The position numbers and the translations under genes are program-made. DNA of 64,000 bases. Origin: an uncultured bacterium. Its GTDB lineage: Bacteria; Zixibacteria; MSB-5A5; GN15; FEB-12. This document shows positions 42,208 through 53,543 of this stretch, piece after piece; within the stretch, counting starts at the first letter, position 1; each line of letters starts with the position of its first letter. Location of the stretch: assembly GCA_965372795.1 (NCBI GenBank), contig CBDVDR010000005.1, positions 32,001 through 96,000 on the forward strand. The letters run 5' to 3'. Under the pieces are notes generated by a model. That model saw only the letters and a program-made list of their open reading frames with translations, did no database searches and had not been told where the DNA came from.

Positions 42208-42526
42208 ATGTGAAGAAAATTCAAAACGATTACATCATTGCAAATCTTAGCTCTTTTCGGACAATTCTTCTTTAGGCAATGTTACAATCAGACCTTAAAC
42301 TATCTCATAATAGTACAAAATACTTGAAAATTATTAACTTCAACCTTGACGTTTACAAAGATATTATATATTTTCAATTACATTGAGTTGGGTATAACTC
42401 TTTATAAAGTATAGAGTTTTCATCCTAATTATTTTACAACAAACGTATTTGATTGTCGTATAAAGAGTAACGAATAAAGAGTTAAATTTTGACGGTTATG
42501 CCGTCAATTAAATTATATTGGAGTTT

Positions 42527-43399
42527 ATGATGGAACTCGACCTTCAGGGAAATATAGAACAATTCACATTACCGGAAATTTTTCAATTAGTTGCTTCGGG
42601 ACGTAAATCCGGAACTTTGGGTATTCAGCAAGAAGATACCATTGTTATGATTTATTTCCAGGAAGGTGAGATTATTTACGGGTATGGTCCTCGTGAGACA
42701 TTTCATATTGGCAGTTTACTTAAGGATAAAGGAATCATTTCCAGCGAGCAGCTTGATGAGGCGGTTCGTCAACAAGCCAAAACAGAAAACACAAAGCGCC
42801 TTGGTGAAATTCTTATATCCAAAAATTATATTGATAAGACCGATCTAAATAATGTTGTCACCAATCAGATTGAAGAACTTCTATATTCTCTTCTGACCTG
42901 GAAATCGGGCACCTTTAAGTTTTATGAAAACCAATTCCCCACTGATGAAGAAATTACTGTTAAAGTATCGGTTGAAAATGTTATTCTTGAGGGACTTCGC
43001 CGAACCGATGAAATGAATATGGTCAAAATGACATTACCGGACATTAATAAAGTGTACACCATCTCTGCCACTCAGGGAGACCGACCCCGGGATTTATCTA
43101 TGAAAGCTGATGAGTGGAATATTATGGCATTAGTTGACGGCCATAAAAATATTGATGAGATTTGTCAGATGAGTCATTTGTCTCGCGAGAAAACTTTGGT
43201 AAAACTGGCTCAACTCAAACTTGCCGGTTTAATCACTCCTTATGATCGTCCAAAATCTTCCGGATCATCAGGTGCTCCTGATCTTGAAAATATGATCAAT
43301 CATCTGGCTGGATTATTCGAAGACTACTTGACGGCTAAATCAGAATCCCGCCTTGACCATAGACAGACGACCAACACTTTTGTGGAGAATCTCGATTGA
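42527..43399 (+). CDS. DUF4388 (PATAN) protein with internal MshEN-like motifs and C-terminal winged helix
   Basis: LQGNIEQFTLPEIFQLV..KSGTL; IGSLL..G...EQLDEA..Q...RLGEILI; W.SGTFKF; ILEGLRRTDE. Confidence 0.82.
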   Translation: MMELDLQGNIEQFTLPEIFQLVASGRKSGTLGIQQEDTIVMIYFQEGEIIYGYGPRETFHIGSLLKDKGIISSEQLDEAVRQQAKTENTKRLGEILISKNYIDKTDLNNVVTNQIEELLYSLLTWKSGTFKFYENQFPTDEEITVKVSVENVILEGLRRTDEMNMVKMTLPDINKVYTISATQGDRPRDLSMKADEWNIMALVDGHKNIDEICQMSHLSREKTLVKLAQLKLAGLITPYDRPKSSGSSGAPDLENMINHLAGLFEDYLTAKSESRLDHRQTTNTFVENLD

Positions 43400-44058
43400 C
43401 CGATTATTTTACATTAAAATCCCTTGAAGGATTGCTTGAGGCATTTCTTGCCGGAGTGGTTCATGTTAAACAGAACAGGTTAAAAGTTATAGAGGGAATT
43501 AACCGCCTTGATGATATAGCTCGCTTTACGGATGAAAAGGGTTCAATTGATGATGCAATTGGTGATTGGTTTGCAGATCATTCCCAATGGCTGAATAAGC
43601 AGGATTTGAAGGAAAATGATATTTCACGTATAGGTGGACTTTTAGAAAATATCAGAGGTCATCTTGATCAGAATAAATTAAGTTCTCCTTCCCGCCGGAA
43701 AATCAGTTCAGAAATTGACCGGTGGAGTTCGATGGTAAGTAAAACTCCTAGAAAAGTAGTTTTAAAACGACCTCCAGAACTTAAAACATCAACCGAACAC
43801 GATACTATTGCGATGTATGCCAATCACTTAGATGACATGACCGCTCTTTTCAAGGATAAGGTTGAAGGAAAGAAACATATTCTTTCAATATTGGATGATG
43901 CCTTAAAATCGGCTGTTGACCAAAAGAATAAACAAGCCTTGCTTTTATCGGGGTATATCATATATTATCTCAAACTTGACGGGTACCTTGTCGAGCCTTA
44001 CGTAAAAAGGCTCAAACAAGCCGAACAGTTGCAAAAAGGAGACATGACAAATGCTTAA
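43396..44058 (+). CDS. Hypothetical helical protein
   Basis: 220-aa ORF overlapping both neighbours; no motif recognised. Confidence 0.6.
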   Translation: MTDYFTLKSLEGLLEAFLAGVVHVKQNRLKVIEGINRLDDIARFTDEKGSIDDAIGDWFADHSQWLNKQDLKENDISRIGGLLENIRGHLDQNKLSSPSRRKISSEIDRWSSMVSKTPRKVVLKRPPELKTSTEHDTIAMYANHLDDMTALFKDKVEGKKHILSILDDALKSAVDQKNKQALLLSGYIIYYLKLDGYLVEPYVKRLKQAEQLQKGDMTNA

Positions 44059-44577: not shown

Positions 44578-46632
44578 TTACTTATCCAATTGGTCTTTTG
44601 GATCTATTGGTTTTCCAGCTTTAATTAAGTCGTGTAGCTTCTGAACTCTTGATTCATTGGGACTCTTAATCTCATGAAAAATCTTTATTGCCTCTTCAAA
44701 ATTCCGTATTGATTGTTCAATGTTTTTAGCTCCATAAAAAGCCTTACCCATTTGCCAAAGTGTTAATCCTTTCTCTGAGGGAATTTCTATTTCGCTGTAA
44801 TAAGTAAGTGCCTCTTCATATTTTAAAATTGCCTGATCCCATCTTTCGTAAGCTCTGTCAACATTACCTAATCCCACCAAACAGTCTACTTCTCCATATC
44901 TATTTTTAATTTTTCGAAAAGTTATTTTAGCCTTTTCAAATAACTTTTCAGCAGAATTAAATTTGTTTTGCACTCGTTGAATATTGCCTTGTGAATAAAG
45001 AGTATTTACTTCACCAAATTCATCTCCAATTTTTTGATAGATCGATTTAGCCTTTTCATAATAATCTCTTGCAGAAACATATTGACGCTTCTGAAATTCT
45101 ATACCACCTTGCGAAAAAAGAACATTTGCGACTCCCTGTTTATCTCCAATTTTTTCGTAGATAGATTTTGCCTGCTTATAAAATTCTTCTGCAGAATCAA
45201 ATTGATATAGATAAAAATCAATATCGCCTTGCGATTTAAGAGTATTTGCTTCACCATGTTTACTTCCAATTTCTTGATAGATTGATTCCGCCCTTTTATA
45301 ATATTCTTTTGATAATTCATATTGATCCTTCTGTAACTCTATGCCGCCTTTTGAAAAAAGAACATTTGCAACACCCTGTTTATCTCCGATTTTTATGTAG
45401 ATAGATTCAGCCTGTTCATAAAATTCTTTTGCAGAATCATATTGATCCAGATAAAATTCTATATCACCTTGTGAGCGGAGCGTATTTGCTTTTCCCAGTT
45501 TACTTCCAATTTCTATGTAGATAGATTCAGCCTGTTCATAAAATTCTTTTGCAGAATGATATTGATCTTTTCGAAGTTCAATATCGCCAAGTGAACAGAG
45601 TGTAGTTGCTTCTCCGAGTTTATCGCCAATTTCTCGGTAGATTGTTTCGGCATGTATAAAATATTCTTTTGCTGTGTCGAATTGTTCCTCGTGCAGTTCT
45701 AAATCGCCCTGTGAAAGAAGTGTGTTCGCTTGACCAAGTTTATTCCCAATTTCCCAATATATTATTTTACTCTGTTCGTAATATTCTTTTGCTGAGTCAT
45801 ATTGGTTCTTCCTATGCTCAATATCGCCTTGTAATTTTATAGTATTTGCTACTCCGAGTTTATTTCCAATTTTATGGTAGATAGTTTCAGACTTTTTATA
45901 ATATATTTTTGCCTTATCATAATTTGATAATCTGTTTAGGGCCTGACCATGCGAAAAATTCAGATTCCCCCAAAACAAATCATCATCAATCTTTATTTCT
46001 CTTATTAAATGAATTTTGTCTAAAGCATTGTTCAATTGATATTTGTATAAATCAACTTGTATCTCCCAAAAAAGACAATAAGCTAAAGCTTTTTTTGAAA
46101 CAAGGGCAGCGAAACTTTGCTCATATATATTTCTTATAAGAGCTTCTATTTTATCATAAGCATAAAATGGAGGATTTAACCAATTTATACATGTATTATA
46201 AAATATATCTTCTCCTTTTTCAGCATCTGCGACCAAAAGATTTCGTATATATTCAATCATCCATCCGGTATCATCAAGGTTTTGATCTTTCCCGTAATTT
46301 GCTGCATTGAAACTTAGTATTTTGTAAGTTTTAGGATCGTTCTCCCACAAATGTTTTTGAAGTATTTTCCGGCTTCGTTCGTGAATGTTAAATCCTTTTC
46401 CTTCAAAAGGTTCAACATAGCTTAACGAAATCAAATCATCGAAACCTTTTATCGATGACTTATCTAGAGTTGCACTCAGATATTTTTCATCAAACCAAGT
46501 TAGAATTGAAGCTGCCCTGACTGCGTCACGAATTTCAGAATTGAGGTTTTCAAGGCTGAACTCCATAACCAGCCATTCCCGCTCTTCATCATTTTTGGCA
46601 TTTTCAAGTTTTGCCAGAAAATCTTCAATCAT
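44578..46632 (-). CDS. Winged-helix plus 40-aa TPR repeat protein (C-terminal half of a split STAND/NLR-like receptor)
   Basis: N-terminal AVRAASILTWFD..L..LSYVE..FNIHERSR (STAND WHD/MHD-like); about 11 TPR units of type G.ANTL.SQGDIE....QY.SAKEYY.QA.SIY..IG.K. Confidence 0.85.
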   Translation of the reverse strand: MIEDFLAKLENAKNDEEREWLVMEFSLENLNSEIRDAVRAASILTWFDEKYLSATLDKSSIKGFDDLISLSYVEPFEGKGFNIHERSRKILQKHLWENDPKTYKILSFNAANYGKDQNLDDTGWMIEYIRNLLVADAEKGEDIFYNTCINWLNPPFYAYDKIEALIRNIYEQSFAALVSKKALAYCLFWEIQVDLYKYQLNNALDKIHLIREIKIDDDLFWGNLNFSHGQALNRLSNYDKAKIYYKKSETIYHKIGNKLGVANTIKLQGDIEHRKNQYDSAKEYYEQSKIIYWEIGNKLGQANTLLSQGDLELHEEQFDTAKEYFIHAETIYREIGDKLGEATTLCSLGDIELRKDQYHSAKEFYEQAESIYIEIGSKLGKANTLRSQGDIEFYLDQYDSAKEFYEQAESIYIKIGDKQGVANVLFSKGGIELQKDQYELSKEYYKRAESIYQEIGSKHGEANTLKSQGDIDFYLYQFDSAEEFYKQAKSIYEKIGDKQGVANVLFSQGGIEFQKRQYVSARDYYEKAKSIYQKIGDEFGEVNTLYSQGNIQRVQNKFNSAEKLFEKAKITFRKIKNRYGEVDCLVGLGNVDRAYERWDQAILKYEEALTYYSEIEIPSEKGLTLWQMGKAFYGAKNIEQSIRNFEEAIKIFHEIKSPNESRVQKLHDLIKAGKPIDPKDQLDK
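44860..45900 (-). repeat. Intragenic tandem 120-nt repeats encoding TPR units
   Basis: Identical 44-nt block TATGTAGATAGATTCAGCCTGTTCATAAAATTCTTTTGCAGAAT at 45394-45437 and 45514-45557; near-identical blocks 240 nt apart at about 45113 and 45353. Confidence 0.9.
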
Positions 46633-47423
46633 TATTTATCTGTCTTTAATGGTAAATTCATAATTACTTTCATAATTGCTTCTGGTCGACCCTTGAAAGC
46701 ATGACATACACCTGCAAGCCAGTTCAGTGGATTCTCCACCTCAATATGACGATTTAATTCTTCAACAACAGGCATCCAATCTTTAGCATCAGGGATTCCC
46801 AATAAAGGATAATGATTACAACAATCACCCCACCCAATATTTTTTATATCTGGTATACATTGACCGGCTACAAGAACTCTCATTTGAGGAGTATCTGAGA
46901 CATGTCCTAAAAATGAATCATCCAACCAACTTTTAAACACACTTGTTGCTTTTTCAAAAGTATCTATAATTATCAGCAGGTTATTATCAAAATTTTTAAT
47001 ATCCTGAAACCATGCGTTTGTTAATATCGATTGACGTATTCTTTTATCTTCTTCCTTTTCAGCTCTTAAGGCAATTTCAATACTGCTTCTATCACCTTTT
47101 AATTTGACGTCTTTAATATTAAGATTTATAGTCGTATGTTCAGAATATGTTGAAACCTCATGTTGGAATTCAGGCAATAGTTCCCAGCCCAGTTTATTTA
47201 CTGATCTATAAAAAATATCTGTAACAGAGATTGTTCCGGATTTGCAATCAAAGCCAATATGAATAAGGTCATCTGGGATCCTATTCTTACAGTCAAAAAG
47301 CAGTTTAGTTTTCCCACTACCACTTTCACCTTCAAAAAATAAAATAGGCTTGTCACAATCGGAACAACATAACTCATCAAAAGCGGAACGTTCATCTACA
47401 TAATCTGCGAAAACAGTTGACAT
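46632..47423 (-). CDS. Stand-alone STAND-type P-loop NTPase (AAA_16/NB-ARC-like)
   Basis: Walker A GESGSGKT, Walker B LLIIIDTFE, sensor strand RVLVAGQ, terminal GxP (KGRP); TAATG overlap with the TPR gene. Confidence 0.85.
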   Translation of the reverse strand: MSTVFADYVDERSAFDELCCSDCDKPILFFEGESGSGKTKLLFDCKNRIPDDLIHIGFDCKSGTISVTDIFYRSVNKLGWELLPEFQHEVSTYSEHTTINLNIKDVKLKGDRSSIEIALRAEKEEDKRIRQSILTNAWFQDIKNFDNNLLIIIDTFEKATSVFKSWLDDSFLGHVSDTPQMRVLVAGQCIPDIKNIGWGDCCNHYPLLGIPDAKDWMPVVEELNRHIEVENPLNWLAGVCHAFKGRPEAIMKVIMNLPLKTDK

Positions 47424-47431
47424 ATTGTTTA

Positions 47432-47749
47432 TTAGTCCTCTTTAGGTCCGATATCAATCTTACTACCTTTACCAATAATTTGAATTTTCTTTGCCTCTAA
47501 ATCATCACCCTTAATTTTAATCTCACTTTCGTCACCATCGATCTTAACATCTTCAATGTCTGCTTTTGTTTCTCCTGTTTGACCGGTGTCTTTCATCTCA
47601 ACCCCGGCCTCTATGCCATCATTGTTAAATTTAAGAAATAATTTCTTTATTTTTTTGCGATTTGGATAAATTACAACAAAAAATAACACCAAGACTACAA
47701 AAGAAATTAAAATAACTAATTGGGTTGTATCCATATCGAAAATCCCCAC
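47432..47749 (-). CDS. Small single-TM protein with C-terminal 21-aa-period beta pseudo-repeats
   Basis: TM LVILISFVVLVLFFVVIY, basic stop-transfer segment, repeats ADIEDVKIDGDESEIKIKG and LEAKKIQIIGKGSKIDIG; likely start ATG 47734 after GGGGA; 8 nt from the NTPase start. Confidence 0.75.
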   Translation of the reverse strand: MGIFDMDTTQLVILISFVVLVLFFVVIYPNRKKIKKLFLKFNNDGIEAGVEMKDTGQTGETKADIEDVKIDGDESEIKIKGDDLEAKKIQIIGKGSKIDIGPKED

Positions 47750-47897
47750 ATGTATAATTAGAAAGTCTTATAACTATTTTTTAATTCTTATTATCCTAAT
47801 ATCTGCCTGCTATAGAGATATATCTCTAATATCATTATATAATATTAAATAGTGAACCAATTATCAATAGATTTTTTCTAGTATTTTGTATTGTCCC

Positions 47898-48797
47898 CTA
47901 AGCGTGGGATGTGAGCGGGAAAAGGTATTCAGTATCTTCAAGGGGGAAATCACTCAACAGGTGGGTGCCGTTATCGGTTACCGGAATTAAGTTATCTGCG
48001 ACTGAAACTGAATTGAATTCTTCTAACTTTAATTTGTCCGGCATAAATAAAAACTCGACCGCCTTATCACTCTCATTACAGAGGTATGGATACAGTTCCG
48101 AAAATATCGGAATCTTTTTAGCAACAATATCATAAACGGTAACCGTTCCCTTGTCCCGTTTGAATGATACGATTGTATCAAGCTCTTTGATGTAGTAAAG
48201 ATTATCATTCAAAACATATAAACACCAAAACATAAACAGACGCGGATTGTAAACACCTAACAGGTCAGAGACTGATTCTCTTTCATTGGCATATTTGTAA
48301 ATAAAATCAAGGTCGGCTTTATTGCTGATCTCCAACTTTTTCAAATCTCGTTTGGGAGTTCCCCCGTCAATTTTAATATTTGTTTTATACTCTTCTACTT
48401 TCCTAAAACCGCGATTTTTATAATATTCCTGGGCATCTTCATCAGCAAAAAGGAAAAAGAAATCATGGTTCGGTTTTGCCCAATCCATTGCTTTTTGAGT
48501 AAGTTCAAGATTCAACCCCTGTTTGCGATAATCAGGATGCGTCCCTACCCCGGAAATTTGAGCCACCAATTTACGCTGGCCATTTACAACCATATCCATA
48601 GAATAGACGCAAACATTTGACACTAACATATCTTTGTTAAAGTATGAGAAGGGTCGATAATTATTATCCCAGTAGCCGGCTTTATCCCAAAGAGTAAGAT
48701 CAAGGTTGTGGATAAAATTAAGATGTTTGATGAATTTATCTTTTGACTCTAAATCGTTCCAGTAATTTTCTTTATAAATCAAATCCATAAAAAACAA
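47898..48797 (-). CDS. GNAT family N-acetyltransferase
   Basis: QISGVGTHPDYRKQGL, YYKNRGF. Confidence 0.88.
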   Translation of the reverse strand: MFFMDLIYKENYWNDLESKDKFIKHLNFIHNLDLTLWDKAGYWDNNYRPFSYFNKDMLVSNVCVYSMDMVVNGQRKLVAQISGVGTHPDYRKQGLNLELTQKAMDWAKPNHDFFFLFADEDAQEYYKNRGFRKVEEYKTNIKIDGGTPKRDLKKLEISNKADLDFIYKYANERESVSDLLGVYNPRLFMFWCLYVLNDNLYYIKELDTIVSFKRDKGTVTVYDIVAKKIPIFSELYPYLCNESDKAVEFLFMPDKLKLEEFNSVSVADNLIPVTDNGTHLLSDFPLEDTEYLFPLTSHA

Positions 48798-48821
48798 TAC
48801 CTTTGTATAATCGTAGAGAAT

Positions 48822-49697
48822 TTATTCGCGCCACAAAGGTCTTGTCAGACAGGTAGGACCGCCGGCACCTTTGGCGGATATTTCATTTCCCTTATAGGTC
48901 AGCACCTCGGCACCAGCCTTTTCAAGGCGTTTCTTTGTAACCGGATTACCCTCAATAGCAATACATTTACGAGGAGCAATCGCCAGGACATTGCAACCCA
49001 TCGAATCAAATTCTTCTTCAGGGACTTCCACCAGTTCTATCCCCCGTTCAAGCAGCCAATTTCTGAAGGGAACCGGCATGATTTTAGAATAAACCAGGGC
49101 AAGGTTTGAATCTATCGGACTGATAAATGACATGAGATGCATGACATCATTAACACCCGTCCAATGCGGAAGCGGCACAACAACAAACTCATCAACTAAG
49201 TCAATCGTTAATTCTCTAAGCTGATCAATGCCAGCTTTATTGGTTCGATAGCCATGCCCAACAACCAAGGTTCGCTCATCAAGCCAGACAATATCGCCAC
49301 CCTCCATTGAACCATCCTCGCAAATCTTCCCTAAAACCGGTACTCCGATTTTTTCAAGATACGCTCCGACCAGAGCCGGTTCGTTTTTTCGATCTTCTTT
49401 TCCCATATTAGCCAAAATCGCACCGTTTTTTGTAATTATAGAAGTATCACGCACGTAGATAGAATCTATTCCAGCTTCAACCGATGATGGCAAATACTCA
49501 AAGTTATCAATCTCAGATTTTAATAATTCCTCAAATTGTTCATACTCATCGAGGGCTTCATTAAAATCAGGGCAATCAAGATAGTTAAATTTTTTCCAGT
49601 ATTCGTCAAGTTTTGATTGGGCGATAAAAGCATCTTTGGGATGACTTAAAAGAATTCTTCTGATATTCGAGATTTCAGACTGACTGCCATGAGACAT
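48822..49697 (-). CDS. Amidinotransferase/dimethylarginine dimethylaminohydrolase family protein
   Basis: YVRD, EGGD, RTN..G, MHL, GGPTCLT (pentein catalytic Cys). Confidence 0.88.
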   Translation of the reverse strand: MSHGSQSEISNIRRILLSHPKDAFIAQSKLDEYWKKFNYLDCPDFNEALDEYEQFEELLKSEIDNFEYLPSSVEAGIDSIYVRDTSIITKNGAILANMGKEDRKNEPALVGAYLEKIGVPVLGKICEDGSMEGGDIVWLDERTLVVGHGYRTNKAGIDQLRELTIDLVDEFVVVPLPHWTGVNDVMHLMSFISPIDSNLALVYSKIMPVPFRNWLLERGIELVEVPEEEFDSMGCNVLAIAPRKCIAIEGNPVTKKRLEKAGAEVLTYKGNEISAKGAGGPTCLTRPLWRE

Positions 49698-49766: not shown

Positions 49767-52700
49767 TCATTCATCAGAATCTATTAGTTTTTGAATAGTA
49801 AAGTCAAGTTCAGAAAATTTATAAGGTTTTGAGATGACAGCAGAAAAGCCATACTTTTCATGGTCAGCCAAAATCAAATCATTTGAGAAGCCACTGCATA
49901 CAATTGCTTTAACTTTCGGATCAATACGAAGCAATTGTTCGATTGTCTCTTCCCCCCCCATTCCTTCGGGAACAACGAGATCAAGAACAACCACATTATA
50001 AGGTTTTTTGTTCTTCTTAGCTTTCTTGAACAGCTTAAGGGCTTCTTCGCCATCTTTGGCAACATCAATTTTATAACCATATTTTGTAAAGGATCGAATT
50101 GCAAGATTACGCAATAATTCTTCATCATCCATAATTAAAACAAAACCTTTGTTAACTTTTTTGATTCCTTCAATATGTTTAGGTTTTGTTTTTGTAGCAG
50201 CAGGCAGATAAATTGTAAAGACCGACCCCGTACCAATTACAGAATCAACTTCAATGTGTCCTTCGTGTTTAACTAAGATAGAATACGCCGCCGCTAATCC
50301 AAGCCCAGAATGAGAAGTACGGGTTGAGAAATAAGGGTCAAAAACTTTTCTCAGGTTCTTTTTTGAAATCCCTTTACCTGCATCCGTGAACGAAACTTTG
50401 ATGAATTTTCCATTTTTAACTGGGAGCTTATTTTTTTCAGTAATTAAAATATTGGAAGCAGCTATTTTGACAGAACCACCATTGGGCATAGCCTGGATGG
50501 CATTTTCAACGATGTTATGGATTACCTGACTTATCTGGCTAATATCAATGTTTACAGACTGAAGATTTTTAGCAATTTCCACCTCAGCTTTTATTTTTGA
50601 ATCAGTTAAAGCCAACATGACCGAATCACGCAATAATCTTTCAATTTCGGCGGGTTCTTTTACCAGGTTACTGCCTTCTGAGTAGGTCAATAACTGCTGG
50701 GTTAAACTTCTTGCACGCCAACCCGCCTTCTCAGCTTCGGTCAACACATCAAAAAGGTCATCATCTTCATCAAGGTCAAGTTTTGCAAAAGAGATATTCC
50801 CAAGGATACCAGTTAATAGGTTATTAAATCCGTGAGCAATACCACCAGCTAAAGTTGCAACCGATTCGAGTTTTTGATTATTTAAAAGTTCCTGTTCATA
50901 TTTTTTTCGTTCAATAAAAGTTCCGATTTCAATTGCAAGGGTCTCCAGGAGCTGTTTTTCTTCTTCATGAAAAGATTCTTCAAATTTCAAAGATTTTTCA
51001 TTCTTGCGATAGACTTCAAGCGTGCCGTATTTATCACCAGAGATAGAAAATTTAAAAATTTTATTACAATTTGATTTTTTAAATTTATTTGAAGATATTT
51101 CTCTATTATCGAACACAATCCTAACAGACGAACAATTGGGATAGCGCAGAGACTTCGCAATTAAGTTAGTGATTTCCTGTAAGACGGTATCTTCAGATTT
51201 GTCAAATTGAATAACAAGTTTTGCAAATTTATTTAAACAATTAAGCTGATTAACTTTAATTTTTAATTGTTCAGTTTGTTCTCGAGCAATTTTCTGAGCT
51301 AATTTTTTTTCAGTAATATCAACACCGACACCATCAATATATTGAATTTCGCCTTTATCGTTTTTTATGGCTGTCATGTTTGCTGAGATCCACCGGGAAG
51401 TACCATCTTTTCTTTTTACATAAAGTTCAATATCTTTGGCAATTCCCTTTTTATTAAGAATATCTATCATTTTTTTTCTAGCATCGGGATCGACATAAAA
51501 TTCACGGCTAGAGACAGCAAGCATTTCTTTCTCTGATTTATATCCCGCGGCTTTTAAAACCGTCGTATTGACCGAGATAAGTTTCCCTTTGGGAGTGGAA
51601 CGGAAAATTCCAACCGGTACATTATTCTGTAAGGTCCGAAGTCTGTTTTCCGACTCCTTAATAGCTTCCTCATTTCGCCGCCTCTCAATCGCATTAGCAA
51701 AAATATCCCCAACAAACCTAAGTAAGGAAATCAGTTTTTCATCCCATTCTCGAACTTCCCCTACATCATCAAAAACACCAAGGGCTCCAATTAAATTTTC
51801 TTCAGTAGTAAGCGGAACAAATAAAAACGGTCGGAATTCTTTCTTTTTTAACCAAAGGATTTCAGGCTTTAGATATGACGGTATATCTTCCAAACTTGAG
51901 AATGCCACATTTTCATCTCTTTTAAATTGTTCGAGATAGAACCCAAAAACTTCAATCGGCACATCCTTAAGCAGTTCAATCTGAGAATCTTTTCTTTTTG
52001 CGCACCACTCATGAGAGTTATAGACTTCTTCGAGATCGGGTGAAAAGAGGAAAAGGGAACATCTTGAAACAGATGCAAATTTTGCAATTTCTTTCAGAGC
52101 TTGAGTGATTGAGCGGTCAATTTTATTTACGGGAATATTAATTAATTCTGCCGAAATTGCAGAGATAAGCTGCTCAAAATCAAGCCAATACTTTAGTTCA
52201 TCTTCAGAACGCTGGCGCTGGGTTATATCCAAAACAGTGCCTATCATTCTTGCAGGTTGGCCAGAATCATCAACAAATATTTCCGATTCTGAATGAAAAT
52301 ATTTGATTTCTCCGTCTTCACAAATGATCCCATAATCAGCACCGAATCCTTTTTCACCGGCGGCAGCTTGTTTCATTAACTTTTTAATTCTTTGCCGATC
52401 TTCCGGAATAACATAGTCGATCCATTCATGGTGCAATGGTCCCAATTCTTTGGGGCGTTTATAAAAAGTGTATAATTCATCAGACCAGGTTATTTCATCA
52501 TTGATCATATCCCATTCCCAGTATCCAATTTGAGCAACTCGCCGTGATTCAGCAAACAGGTTATGGCTTTCACGCAAGGCTCTTTCAGCAAGGATAGTTT
52601 CGGTTCTGTCTTCATGGGTGATTATAACATTGATGACTTTGCCATTTGTGTCTTTAAGAGGAAAGATTCGGCTATTAACCCATCGTGCATTAGACTGAGT

Positions 52701-53543
52701 TTCAGAGATGATAGGCTCCAACTCAACATTGGAAAGGATTGTATTTTTTCCTTTTCTAGCTTTTTCAAAAGCTGAGGTATAACCCTGGATTATTGCTGTT
52801 GGATCGGAAAGAATATTATACTGGTCGATTGCTTGATTAGCTATAACATCAAAAAAGTTTTCAAAAGCTTGATTCACTCTAATTTGAAAACCATTTAAAT
52901 CAAAAATTTCAATAGGGACGGGTGATTGCTCAATTATCAGGTCAGCTAATAGTTTTGTTTCCTGAAGCTTCTTTTCCTGATTTTTAATCTGGGTTAAATC
53001 AGTTATTGAAGTACGAATCTGGAAAAATTCTTTCATATCCCCAAAAACAGGAATGCTTTCCAGATAAACATCGAAAATTGAACCATCTTTTTTTACCAGC
53101 TTGAGTTCGCAAAACTGCTTTGTTTTAGAATCTTCTACTTTTTGTCTATGCAGGGTAAAGTGTTTTTTGTCTTTTGAGGATATAAACGGGTTAAAGGTCT
53201 GACCGATAATGCTTCGTTTATCAATCCCTAAAAGGTCGGCACCATGCTGGTTAATTTCGAGGACTTTCCCTTTACTGCAAAATGATACATATCCGATGGG
53301 AGCAAAATCATATAAGTTATAATATCTATTTCTGGAGAGCTCAAGTTCATTTTTAACAGTCTGAAATTCAATACAGTTTTCTTCTAATACCGTTAGAGTT
53401 TCTTTGGTTTCATTTAGAAATTTATTAAACTGCTTTTCAAAGGCTGAATTTAGATTTTTAGTTTTATTTGCAAGAAGTTTTTCTATTTTAGACTGTAATT
53501 GATTTGTTTTCTTTAAAAAATTATTAGATTTATTCACGTTCAA
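49767..53543 (-). CDS. Cytoplasmic multi-PAS/GAF hybrid histidine kinase with C-terminal receiver
   Basis: Several PAS/PAC units (APIGY, IGYWEWD, VPVGIF), GAF, H box GGIAHGFNN, N/G boxes, REC VLIMDDE..LDL..KPY. Confidence 0.92.
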   Translation of the reverse strand: MNVNKSNNFLKKTNQLQSKIEKLLANKTKNLNSAFEKQFNKFLNETKETLTVLEENCIEFQTVKNELELSRNRYYNLYDFAPIGYVSFCSKGKVLEINQHGADLLGIDKRSIIGQTFNPFISSKDKKHFTLHRQKVEDSKTKQFCELKLVKKDGSIFDVYLESIPVFGDMKEFFQIRTSITDLTQIKNQEKKLQETKLLADLIIEQSPVPIEIFDLNGFQIRVNQAFENFFDVIANQAIDQYNILSDPTAIIQGYTSAFEKARKGKNTILSNVELEPIISETQSNARWVNSRIFPLKDTNGKVINVIITHEDRTETILAERALRESHNLFAESRRVAQIGYWEWDMINDEITWSDELYTFYKRPKELGPLHHEWIDYVIPEDRQRIKKLMKQAAAGEKGFGADYGIICEDGEIKYFHSESEIFVDDSGQPARMIGTVLDITQRQRSEDELKYWLDFEQLISAISAELINIPVNKIDRSITQALKEIAKFASVSRCSLFLFSPDLEEVYNSHEWCAKRKDSQIELLKDVPIEVFGFYLEQFKRDENVAFSSLEDIPSYLKPEILWLKKKEFRPFLFVPLTTEENLIGALGVFDDVGEVREWDEKLISLLRFVGDIFANAIERRRNEEAIKESENRLRTLQNNVPVGIFRSTPKGKLISVNTTVLKAAGYKSEKEMLAVSSREFYVDPDARKKMIDILNKKGIAKDIELYVKRKDGTSRWISANMTAIKNDKGEIQYIDGVGVDITEKKLAQKIAREQTEQLKIKVNQLNCLNKFAKLVIQFDKSEDTVLQEITNLIAKSLRYPNCSSVRIVFDNREISSNKFKKSNCNKIFKFSISGDKYGTLEVYRKNEKSLKFEESFHEEEKQLLETLAIEIGTFIERKKYEQELLNNQKLESVATLAGGIAHGFNNLLTGILGNISFAKLDLDEDDDLFDVLTEAEKAGWRARSLTQQLLTYSEGSNLVKEPAEIERLLRDSVMLALTDSKIKAEVEIAKNLQSVNIDISQISQVIHNIVENAIQAMPNGGSVKIAASNILITEKNKLPVKNGKFIKVSFTDAGKGISKKNLRKVFDPYFSTRTSHSGLGLAAAYSILVKHEGHIEVDSVIGTGSVFTIYLPAATKTKPKHIEGIKKVNKGFVLIMDDEELLRNLAIRSFTKYGYKIDVAKDGEEALKLFKKAKKNKKPYNVVVLDLVVPEGMGGEETIEQLLRIDPKVKAIVCSGFSNDLILADHEKYGFSAVISKPYKFSELDFTIQKLIDSDE

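Follow-up and report, generated by a model that had tools for sequence, protein, structure and literature searches.

Amyloid signalling linked to NOD-like receptors (NLRs) is known from fungi, from the RHIM motif in animals, and from a dozen classes of bacterial motifs, and one anti-phage system of this kind has been tested. The in-register stacking of HET-s, with its residue ladders and salt bridges, is known from a solved fibril. The curli proteins CsgB and CsgA are built from tandem repeats, each about 20 residues long, in which Gln, Asn, and Gly are conserved; the repeats stack as a beta-solenoid, and the nucleator templates the subunit; curli is an extracellular biofilm fibre with five repeats per subunit and has no nucleoside triphosphatase (NTPase) or tetratricopeptide repeat (TPR) partner. 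Here we describe a small gene in a stretch of 64,000 nucleotides from an uncultured bacterium of the Zixibacteria (contig CBDVDR010000005.1, positions 32,001 to 96,000; "the window" hereafter). This gene, which we call the effector gene, heads a conserved three-gene operon that encodes a one-pass membrane protein, a P-loop NTPase resembling the signal transduction ATPases with numerous domains (STAND), and a TPR protein. An earlier note, made from the letters of the window, had proposed that the C-terminus of the membrane protein (coordinates 47447–47563 on the minus strand, which are residues 63–101 of an open reading frame (ORF) of 105 amino acids) consists of two HET-s-like pseudo-repeats.

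Bacterial gene pairs of this general type have been described. According to the Dyrka 2020 preprint, adjacent NLR and effector genes share amyloid motifs, in some cases as two to three pseudo-repeats in the effector against a single one in the NLR; effectors of the BASS type include alpha/beta-hydrolase, TIR, and CHAT domains, and effectors without a Bell domain are known. The Bab/Agp system is presented in the Ibarlosa 2024 preprint as an amyloid-signalling abortive infection (Abi) system directed against phage. Its motif, BASS11, is also linked there to TIR, CHAT, and EAD7 (EAD, effector-associated domain), and Bab itself has about 109 amino acids with an N-terminal hydrophobic helix. For the operon in the window, we hold with moderate confidence that the small gene is the effector of a three-gene NLR-like conflict system, in which stacking tails are seeded or docked by a further copy of the repeat in the NTPase (R0) after assembly triggered by the TPR protein. 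The conflict system is probably of the anti-phage or cell-death kind.

The operon and its module family

All three genes lie on the minus strand and are tightly packed. The NTPase starts 8 nucleotides after the effector stop, with a Shine-Dalgarno-like AGAGGA within the last codons of the effector, and the TPR gene shares one base with the NTPase stop (TAATG). Relatives of the effector had to be approached indirectly. A word-index homology search with the effector returned no match besides its own entry, and matches in a protein atlas were confined to unnamed clusters of about 100 amino acids with scores of 0.89–0.90. We therefore reached the relatives through the neighbours of the NTPase, which has 13 relatives besides itself, followed by profile search, and gathered further loci from genomes and metagenomes by pattern scans.

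A double-repeat ORF ends at the NTPase start in 20 of 23 distinct related loci. Two of the remaining loci lack upstream DNA (L016 and L018) and one has no recognisable effector (L012); L023 duplicates L009. In the layout shared by the effectors, a short N-terminus leads into a transmembrane (TM) helix and a conserved juxtamembrane segment; after a variable linker come the two repeats, which form the module that defines the family. Downstream of the NTPase, a gene with a conserved N-terminal region followed by TPRs is present in 15 of the 16 loci with enough DNA, as judged by eye. A hidden Markov model (HMM) of 19 modules matched 166 representatives at E<=1e-3, including 33 at E<=1e-10, among the 1.84 billion searched, and the module is near-full in 143 of 150 among the matches listed.

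The TM segment stands at the N-terminus in 128 of the 143 family representatives with a near-full module. Mean net charge is +2.85 in the ten residues after this segment and -0.69 before it. Membrane topology is given by the positive-inside rule, and the positive charge following the TM segment thus predicts an N-out, C-in orientation with the repeats in the cytoplasm. Translation of the window protein likely starts at the ATG at 47734 (100 amino acids) rather than at the GTG at 47749. The database copy has 100 amino acids and begins at this ATG, 16 relatives align from it, and GGGGA is located 9 nucleotides upstream. Pfam gave no HET-s or Curlin match to the effector at E<=1 and no EAD match, and a bactofilin or curlin identity was dropped for lack of a Pfam match at that threshold.

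The distribution of the operon is patchy. Among 40 relatives that share its genus, family, or order, none yielded the NTPase, and copies that are 55–59% identical occur in a Brocadia metagenome-assembled genome and in other distant lineages or phyla. No paralogues of the effector or the NTPase were found in the genome to which the window belongs. The GC content of the operon (0.32–0.35) is only slightly lower than that of its flanks (0.35–0.44) and is indecisive for transfer. Neither the effector nor the NTPase is covered by a PADLOC model, and the third gene was matched only by generic TPR models.

Two loci have unusual copies of these genes. At the most divergent locus (L030:315–638), the second effector repeat is degenerate, with no glycine pair found by the script, and R0 lacks its glycine; this copy may be decaying or re-purposed. 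At a locus from Anaerolineales (L007:4001–4780), the NTPase frame stops after 91 residues although tblastn matched residues 1–262, and the short frame may be due to a frameshift or an assembly error.

Period and charge pairing of the repeats

The earlier note had aligned the two repeats, R1 and R2, by the pairs G72/G93, S75/S96, I77/I98, and I79/I100, and had listed five pairs of opposite charge, E66/K87, D67/K88, D73/K94, E76/K97, and K78/D99. All nine pairs are correct in the sequence. At an offset of 21 residues the 46-residue module contains seven opposite-charge and two same-charge pairs, and at least seven opposite-charge pairs arose in 146 of 20,000 shuffles. However, the top gapless self-match of the window sequence alone falls at offset 9 (score 36, reached in 24 of 5,000 shuffles), owing to the alternation of charged and hydrophobic residues. 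Since offset 9 outranks offset 21, the period is not established by the single sequence.

It is the family that carries the period. Eighteen of 19 aligned modules match themselves best at offset 21, the sole exception being the window sequence. Both repeat glycines are invariant in the 19 modules, and in a larger set of 121 modules G13 is found in all 121 and G34 in 118. Opposite-charge pairs peak family-wide at offset 21 (62 opposite, 18 same), where their rate is 0.133 per compared pair, versus 0.034–0.089 at offsets 13–29.

These observations bear on the most trivial explanation, in which the tail is a low-complexity charged sequence of no function, with a periodicity and a likeness to the NTPase that arise by chance or from composition. 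Such an explanation can draw on the offset-9 self-match of the window sequence and on the word-index search that returned no relatives. It is at odds with the 166 profile matches of the same architecture, the invariant glycines, and the offset-21 couplings described below, as well as with R0 matches far above those of shuffled proteins and with the conserved synteny. As far as sequence analysis goes the family data already refute it, and we regard it as extremely improbable.

Couplings between the two repeats

The coupling analysis used 121 unique modules, in which 21 of the 780 candidate column pairs have an offset of 21. Ranked by mutual information with average product correction (MI-APC), nine of the top ten pairs are at i/i+21, and mean-field direct coupling analysis (DCA) places all of its top ten there. 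None of the top coupled pairs shows the antiparallel pattern expected of a hairpin meander.

Several of these column pairs carry charges that are exchanged between proteins. Columns 17/38 are +/- in 34 modules, -/+ in 17, +/+ in 4, and -/- in 2 (Fisher 6e-9). In the same order, the counts are 29, 12, 6, and 1 for columns 14/35; 39, 8, 2, and 2 for columns 15/36; 16, 8, 2, and 0 for columns 8/29; and 7, 17, 1, and 2 for columns 19/40. When the set is thinned to 55 representatives (50% module identity), columns 17/38 retain 17, 9, 2, and 1 (p=5e-5); a cut-off of 40% leaves 23 representatives, numbers too small for the charge-swap test. Other columns form ladders of identical residues. Columns 9/30 are Asn-Asn in 83 of the 121 modules and Ile-Ile in five, and columns 11/32 are identical in 95 (Gln-Gln in 68, Leu-Leu in 16, Met-Met in 10). 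At these positions the residues of R1 and R2 are the same within a protein and differ between proteins.

Because inward- and outward-facing positions both couple, and all at i/i+21, the alignments strongly support a parallel in-register stacking of two rungs, as in HET-s. Homogenisation of the repeats cannot explain the swapped salt bridges. In a head-to-tail stack every interface would be an R1/R2 interface, and a stack of this type is therefore predicted to be open-ended. The earlier suggestion of a HET-s-like two-rung solenoid with inter-rung salt bridges is strongly supported by the i/i+21 couplings, including the charge swaps. The likeness to HET-s does not extend to membership in its sequence family, to which there is no match, or to the loop between repeats, which is absent here.

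Structure predictions were made on whole chains. In the AlphaFold2 (AF2) model of the effector, which was built on 16 effectors, the tail forms four strands that correspond to the halves of R1 and R2, with a predicted local distance difference test score (pLDDT) of about 77 (76 overall). The TM helix is placed at residues 3–25 (100-residue numbering; pLDDT about 90), and the juxtamembrane hairpin has strands at residues 29–37 and 40–47 (pLDDT 64–76). Foldseek returned no match to this model in the Protein Data Bank (PDB) at E<=0.001. An all-against-all structural search (VIA) with the effector gave rows with Z<=3.4, mostly to the TM helix. A profile of the module found no relative among PDB sequences, with one unrelated match at E=1.3.

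A single copy of the repeat inside the NTPase

The NTPase has the expected catalytic motifs. Residues G32, G35, G37, K38, and T39 of Walker A are invariant in 30 NTPase sequences, as is D154 of Walker B; E157 is invariant in alignment A1. All Pfam scores are below threshold (AAA_22, 19.7 with a cut-off of 27; AAA_16, 14.9 with 32.6; NACHT, 13.7 with 26.7), and a profile of the NTPase matched PDB sequences only over segments of the P-loop region. The AF2 model, built on an alignment of only 30 rows, has a pLDDT of 90.3. Foldseek relates it with probability 1.00 to the archaeal ATPase 2qen, MalT (8bob), ORC/Cdc6 subunits, and CED-4 (2a5y), at TM scores of only 0.41–0.57. The resemblance of this confident model to 2qen, MalT, ORC/Cdc6, and CED-4 marks the protein as a STAND or initiator-type NTPase that is split from its TPR sensor. 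A search for fused, longer forms of the NTPase found none, which is weak evidence. One relative of the NTPase, P0015, has an apparently helical N-terminal extension of 100 residues that is absent from all others.

We identified a single copy of the repeat motif, R0, within this NTPase. In a BLASTP comparison of the effector with its own NTPase, the repeat aligns to NTPase residues 102–130 (12 of 29 identical, E=0.002). Across 34 NTPases the R0 segment is conserved and has the same alternating beta pattern, with Gly and Asn kept. An HMM built from 236 effector repeats only has its best match on the R0 glycine in 31 of the 32 NTPases that gave a match (33 scanned); scores are mostly 8–16 bits, and the maximum in 660 shuffled NTPases is 3.2. 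Applied to the 213 six-frame ORFs of the window, the repeat HMM scores the effector at 11.5, the NTPase at 7.5, and the next ORF at 4.0; by this measure neither the TPR protein nor any other of these ORFs contains an additional copy.

R0 also varies together with the effector repeats of its own locus. Over 19 positions, R0 has 7.59 identities to cognate and 5.79 to non-cognate effector repeats in 17 loci (1 of 20,000 permutations, phylogeny being ignored). For this comparison L017 and L028 were dropped, and L007, L016, L018, and L030 were unusable. At ladder column 9, the switch from Asn to a hydrophobic residue is joint in R0, R1, and R2, with R0 equal to R1 in 14 of 17 loci where 7.9 are expected. 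The Asn ladder is replaced by Ile, Val, or Leu in the window clade and in L025/L026, and this replacement is common to R0 and the repeats. Charge pairs in the 17 loci are 18 opposite and 8 same between R0 and R1, 17 opposite and 24 same between R0 and R2, and 44 opposite and 7 same between R1 and R2. The charges of R0 are thus R2-like and complementary to R1, so that R0 could sit on R1.

In the NTPase model, R0 is located in a helix-loop-helix insert between strand 2 (residues 54–59) and the Walker B strand (149–154); only about 25 residues stand ahead of strand 1. It contains the single uncertain spot of the model, a loop at residues 100–107 with pLDDT below 50. We take the insert to occupy the site of the initiator-specific motif; in the rings formed by Orc/Cdc6 and by apoptosomes, the central hub is lined by this motif. 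If so, assembly of a ring would cluster the R0 segments. A prediction of the complex from the NTPase and module alignments scored 0.00 with the fold of the partner uncertain, and gives no evidence either way.

The matching of R0 and the repeats might also have arisen by mimicry. R0 would then be an ordinary helix-loop element whose partner is either a site within the NTPase or the TPR protein. The effector repeats would imitate R0 and compete for that site without contacting R0 itself, acting by release of autoinhibition or by sequestration of the effector. Half of R0 is a confident AF2 helix packed in the NTPase, and co-variation of R0 with R1 and R2 is also expected if all three bind one co-evolving surface. 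This would leave the charge-swap couplings between R1 and R2 at i/i+21 without an explanation, and an alternating beta pattern with invariant Gly and Asn, as R0 retains, is unusual for a helix. In addition, no third conserved partner site was identified, and the repeat HMM found no additional copy in the TPR protein or the rest of the window. We therefore consider mimicry improbable.

Exchange of effector domains

Members of the family carry the module on effectors of different types. The module follows an alpha/beta-hydrolase domain (Abhydrolase_6/DUF676) in L022, EAD7 in L024, L027, and P0020, and TIR_2 in P0067. In six proteins the order is different, with the module located between a TM helix and EAD7. 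One protein, P0024, has three repeats. In Kaur et al. (2020, eLife), displacement of effectors on a constant adaptor is described as a mark of conflict systems.

The repeat pattern of the module resembles a rung of a right-handed beta-helix. P0105 and P0160 are long proteins of identical 180-residue units with adhesive domains of the Pectate_lyase_5 type of beta-helix, in which a single module repeat matches six to eight times. We did not accept these pectate-lyase-like adhesins, or P0148 (Matrixin), as relatives; their single-repeat matches show only a likeness to a beta-helix rung.

An alternative to polymerisation is a finite docking adaptor. R1 and R2 might form a small closed beta unit that R0 joins as a third rung or as an edge strand, in a complex of fixed 1:1 composition. 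Such a unit would resemble homotypic adaptors of the death-fold or EAD type, and the NTPase ring alone would gather the effectors. All of the sequence evidence for stacking and for R0 matching fits such a docking adaptor equally well. One core copy with further copies on swappable effectors is how effector-associated domains are defined in Kaur et al. (2020), the module co-occurs with EAD7, and a single R0 per NTPase with R2-like charges would suit a defined R0-R1-R2 unit of three rungs. On the other hand, a solenoid of 42 residues with two or three rungs is uncapped on either side, and the variable tails after R2 show no conserved element that could serve as a cap. The three repeats of P0024 suggest that the stack tolerates extension, and known motifs of like composition and gene context form fibrils, according to the Ibarlosa 2024 and Dyrka 2020 preprints. 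We judge a fixed, non-polymerising complex to be rather unlikely.

A model for effector activation

In the mechanism that we infer for this operon, the N-terminal helix of the effector would anchor the protein in the membrane with its tail in the cytoplasm. R1 and R2 would each contribute three short strands around the invariant glycine, and the two rungs would stack in parallel and in register in a beta-solenoid, held inside by ladders of Asn and of Gln or Leu and outside by salt bridges. The resulting unit would be open-ended, such that further copies could be added head to tail. An exposed insert in the nucleotide-binding domain of the NTPase would present R0 as an additional rung. Oligomerisation of the NTPase would be triggered by the TPR sensor, and the clustered R0 rungs would then dock on R1 of the membrane-anchored effector and probably seed the stacking of tails. 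Stacking would in turn cluster and activate the membrane helices, or the TIR, hydrolase, and EAD7 domains in relatives. The output is probably growth arrest or death of the infected cell, in the case of the window protein presumably by membrane damage.

We put forward only tentatively a more specific version, in which R0 is a metamorphic, prion-like nucleus in the core of the NTPase that is a helix or loop at rest and a beta rung once active. Assembly of the ring would then seed an open-ended beta-solenoid polymer of effectors that kills the cell, and the operon would represent an undescribed family of amyloid signalling. The family is spread widely through Chloroflexota, Acidobacteriota, Planctomycetota, and further phyla, and in this version earlier screens would have missed it because its receptor motif is internal.

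Several points weigh against the proposed mechanism. The i/i+21 couplings prove neighbouring rungs and fit an intramolecular two-rung unit or a polymer alike, and the ladders of identical residues, unlike the charge swaps, could by themselves stem from homogenisation of the repeats. The window protein is an atypical member of the family, with Ser and Ile or Val in place of the Asn/Gln ladders and only 48 bits against the profile. The sole PDB chain matched over its residues 57–100 is the HELLF prion amyloid 6eka (Z 3.2, root-mean-square deviation 5.0, 42 residues aligned), a match that does not rise above the tool's noise and scores equally with unrelated rows. The cognate comparison rests on about five lineage-specific changes and takes no account of phylogeny, and the R2-like charge count of R0 comes from 17 loci, a small sample. 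The C-terminal half of R0, residues 111–119, forms a confident AF2 helix (block mean pLDDT 89), so that R0 could serve as a beta rung only after refolding. Finally, every amyloid signalling motif described so far is found at an NLR N-terminus, but R0 is part of the NTPase domain.

If the activation model is correct, a template is embedded in a nucleotide-binding domain, and assembly driven by nucleoside triphosphates is linked directly to seeding. A module of 42 residues would then suffice to couple a membrane helix, TIR, a hydrolase, or EAD7 to one sensor. The module family is also a natural source of data from which a two-rung architecture like that of HET-s, with swapped salt bridges, can be read through evolutionary couplings, and the minimal effector, a TM helix with a stacking tail, is an attractive model for how polymerisation could be turned into membrane damage.

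Features of the locus and its neighbourhood

The features of the operon are collected in Table 1. The promoter-like site in the gap upstream of the effector gene is weak evidence, as promoter-like sites in the region are not more numerous than in shuffles.

Table 1. Positions of operon features within the window (residue numbers of the effector follow the 105-residue ORF)
Feature	Coordinates	Strand	Basis
Effector gene; ORF of 105 amino acids from GTG 47749, one-pass membrane protein with C-terminal double repeat	47432..47749	minus	
N-terminal TM helix, residues 8-30, followed by basic stretch NRKKIKK	47660..47728	minus	AF2 and family
Conserved juxtamembrane segment, family pattern FxIKAxxEGVEAxL, predicted beta-hairpin	47594..47650	minus	Alignment and AF2
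R1, first 21-residue rung, residues 63-83	47501..47563	minus	Alignment, couplings
R2, second 21-residue rung, residues 84-104, contiguous with R1	47438..47500	minus	Alignment, couplings
NTPase gene; STAND-like P-loop NTPase of 263 amino acids	46632..47423	minus	AF2, Foldseek, sub-threshold Pfam
Walker A, GESGSGKT, NTPase residues 32-39	47307..47330	minus	Conservation
R0, single internal copy of the repeat motif, NTPase residues 101-119	47067..47123	minus	BLASTP, HMM, alignment
Walker B strand and acidic residues, NTPase residues 149-157	46953..46979	minus	Alignment, AF2
Third gene; 684 amino acids, conserved helical N-terminal region, then TPR_12 repeats	44578..46632	minus	Pfam TPR_12, 5.7e-55
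DNA-level tandem array inside the TPR gene	44980..45912	minus	
Promoter-like site TTGATA-17-TATTAT in the 150-nucleotide gap upstream of the effector gene (weak evidence)	47839..47867	minus	

The TPR protein is presumed to be the sensor part of a split NLR-like protein. The tandem array within its gene has a period of 120 nucleotides (7.8 copies, 69% matches) and a period of 240 nucleotides (2.5–2.8 copies, 77–80% matches). Internal repeat conservation of this type is reported for the rapidly diversifying sensor repeats of NLRs.

Upstream of the operon, the minus strand encodes a GNAT acetyltransferase (Acetyltransf_9, 7.8e-11) and a protein resembling arginine deiminase and DDAH (ADI, 7.5e-29), both within 47898–49697, followed by an ORF of 1258 amino acids (49767–53543) that by eye looks like a hybrid sensor kinase with several PAS domains and a receiver. 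Shortly past the TPR gene, on the opposite strand, a gene for a DUF4388 protein (42518–43399, 5e-37) is next to an unannotated ORF of 220 amino acids (43396–44058).

Comparison with known systems

CsgB and CsgA of curli resemble the present system in having stacked tandem repeats and a templating partner, and the effector has no Pfam Curlin match at E<=1.

The EAD1-10 domains have a similar logic. As described by Kaur, Burroughs, Iyer, and Aravind (2020, eLife), one copy is located in a core NTPase system and further copies on displaceable neighbouring effectors, and a homotypic coupling between copies is proposed. The module itself matches no Pfam EAD family, and the EAD7 matches in its relatives lie outside the repeat module. 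Unlike the EADs, which are globular, the module is built of beta repeats in tandem (2 x 21 residues), and only one repeat is present in the core component, within its P-loop domain.

The BASS motifs (BASS1-10 and BASS11) are also short, G/N/Q-rich beta motifs that occur both in the C-terminal region of an effector and in an NLR-like or TPR protein encoded beside it. Their alternative effectors carry alpha/beta-hydrolase, TIR, CHAT, and EAD7 domains, compared with a TM helix, hydrolase, TIR, and EAD7 here. In contrast to the helical, HeLo-like Bell domain of BASS effectors, only a TM helix and a short hairpin precede the repeats in this family. The BASS screens covered NLR N-termini and Bell-domain proteins beside Pfam-recognised NB-ARC and NACHT proteins, according to the Dyrka 2020 preprint. 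Since R0 is internal and the NTPase is below all Pfam thresholds, the family would have escaped such published screens. In the part of the BASS training set that was searched (supplement of PMC8086366), five of six family-typical 5-mers have no match, and the sixth occurs only in unrelated PDB fragments. No earlier description of the module family was found in a literature search whose scope excluded subscription papers, figure logos, and closed supplements.

HET-s and its NLR-type partner NWD2 of Podospora, with their HRAM motifs, are a further parallel. They also have two 21-residue pseudo-repeats on the effector and one copy on an adjacent NLR-type NTPase with TPR- or WD-type repeats, and the effector of HET-s acts at the membrane, as is proposed here. 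Asn ladders, glycine arcs, and inter-rung salt bridges are found in the solved HET-s fibril as well; in this family they are read from couplings. There are also differences. There is no detectable sequence homology to HET-s or HELLF in Pfam or among PDB sequences. A flexible, Gly/Pro-rich loop of 6–15 residues separates the repeats of HRAM, according to the Dyrka 2020 preprint, whereas R2 is contiguous with R1. The receptor copy is N-terminal in NWD2 and inside the NTPase domain here, and a plain N-terminal TM helix takes the place of the HeLo domain. Moreover, the NTPase and TPR parts are separate, overlapping genes in this bacterial system, whereas a STAND or NLR-type NTPase is expected to carry its C-terminal helical module and its sensor repeats in a single chain.

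The HET-s/NWD2 logic thus holds in outline: the effector has two copies, and the NLR-like NTPase encoded next to it has one, which varies together with them. We rate the system as a variant of NLR-associated amyloid or homotypic signalling that has an internal receptor copy, contiguous repeats, and a one-pass membrane effector that may polymerise.

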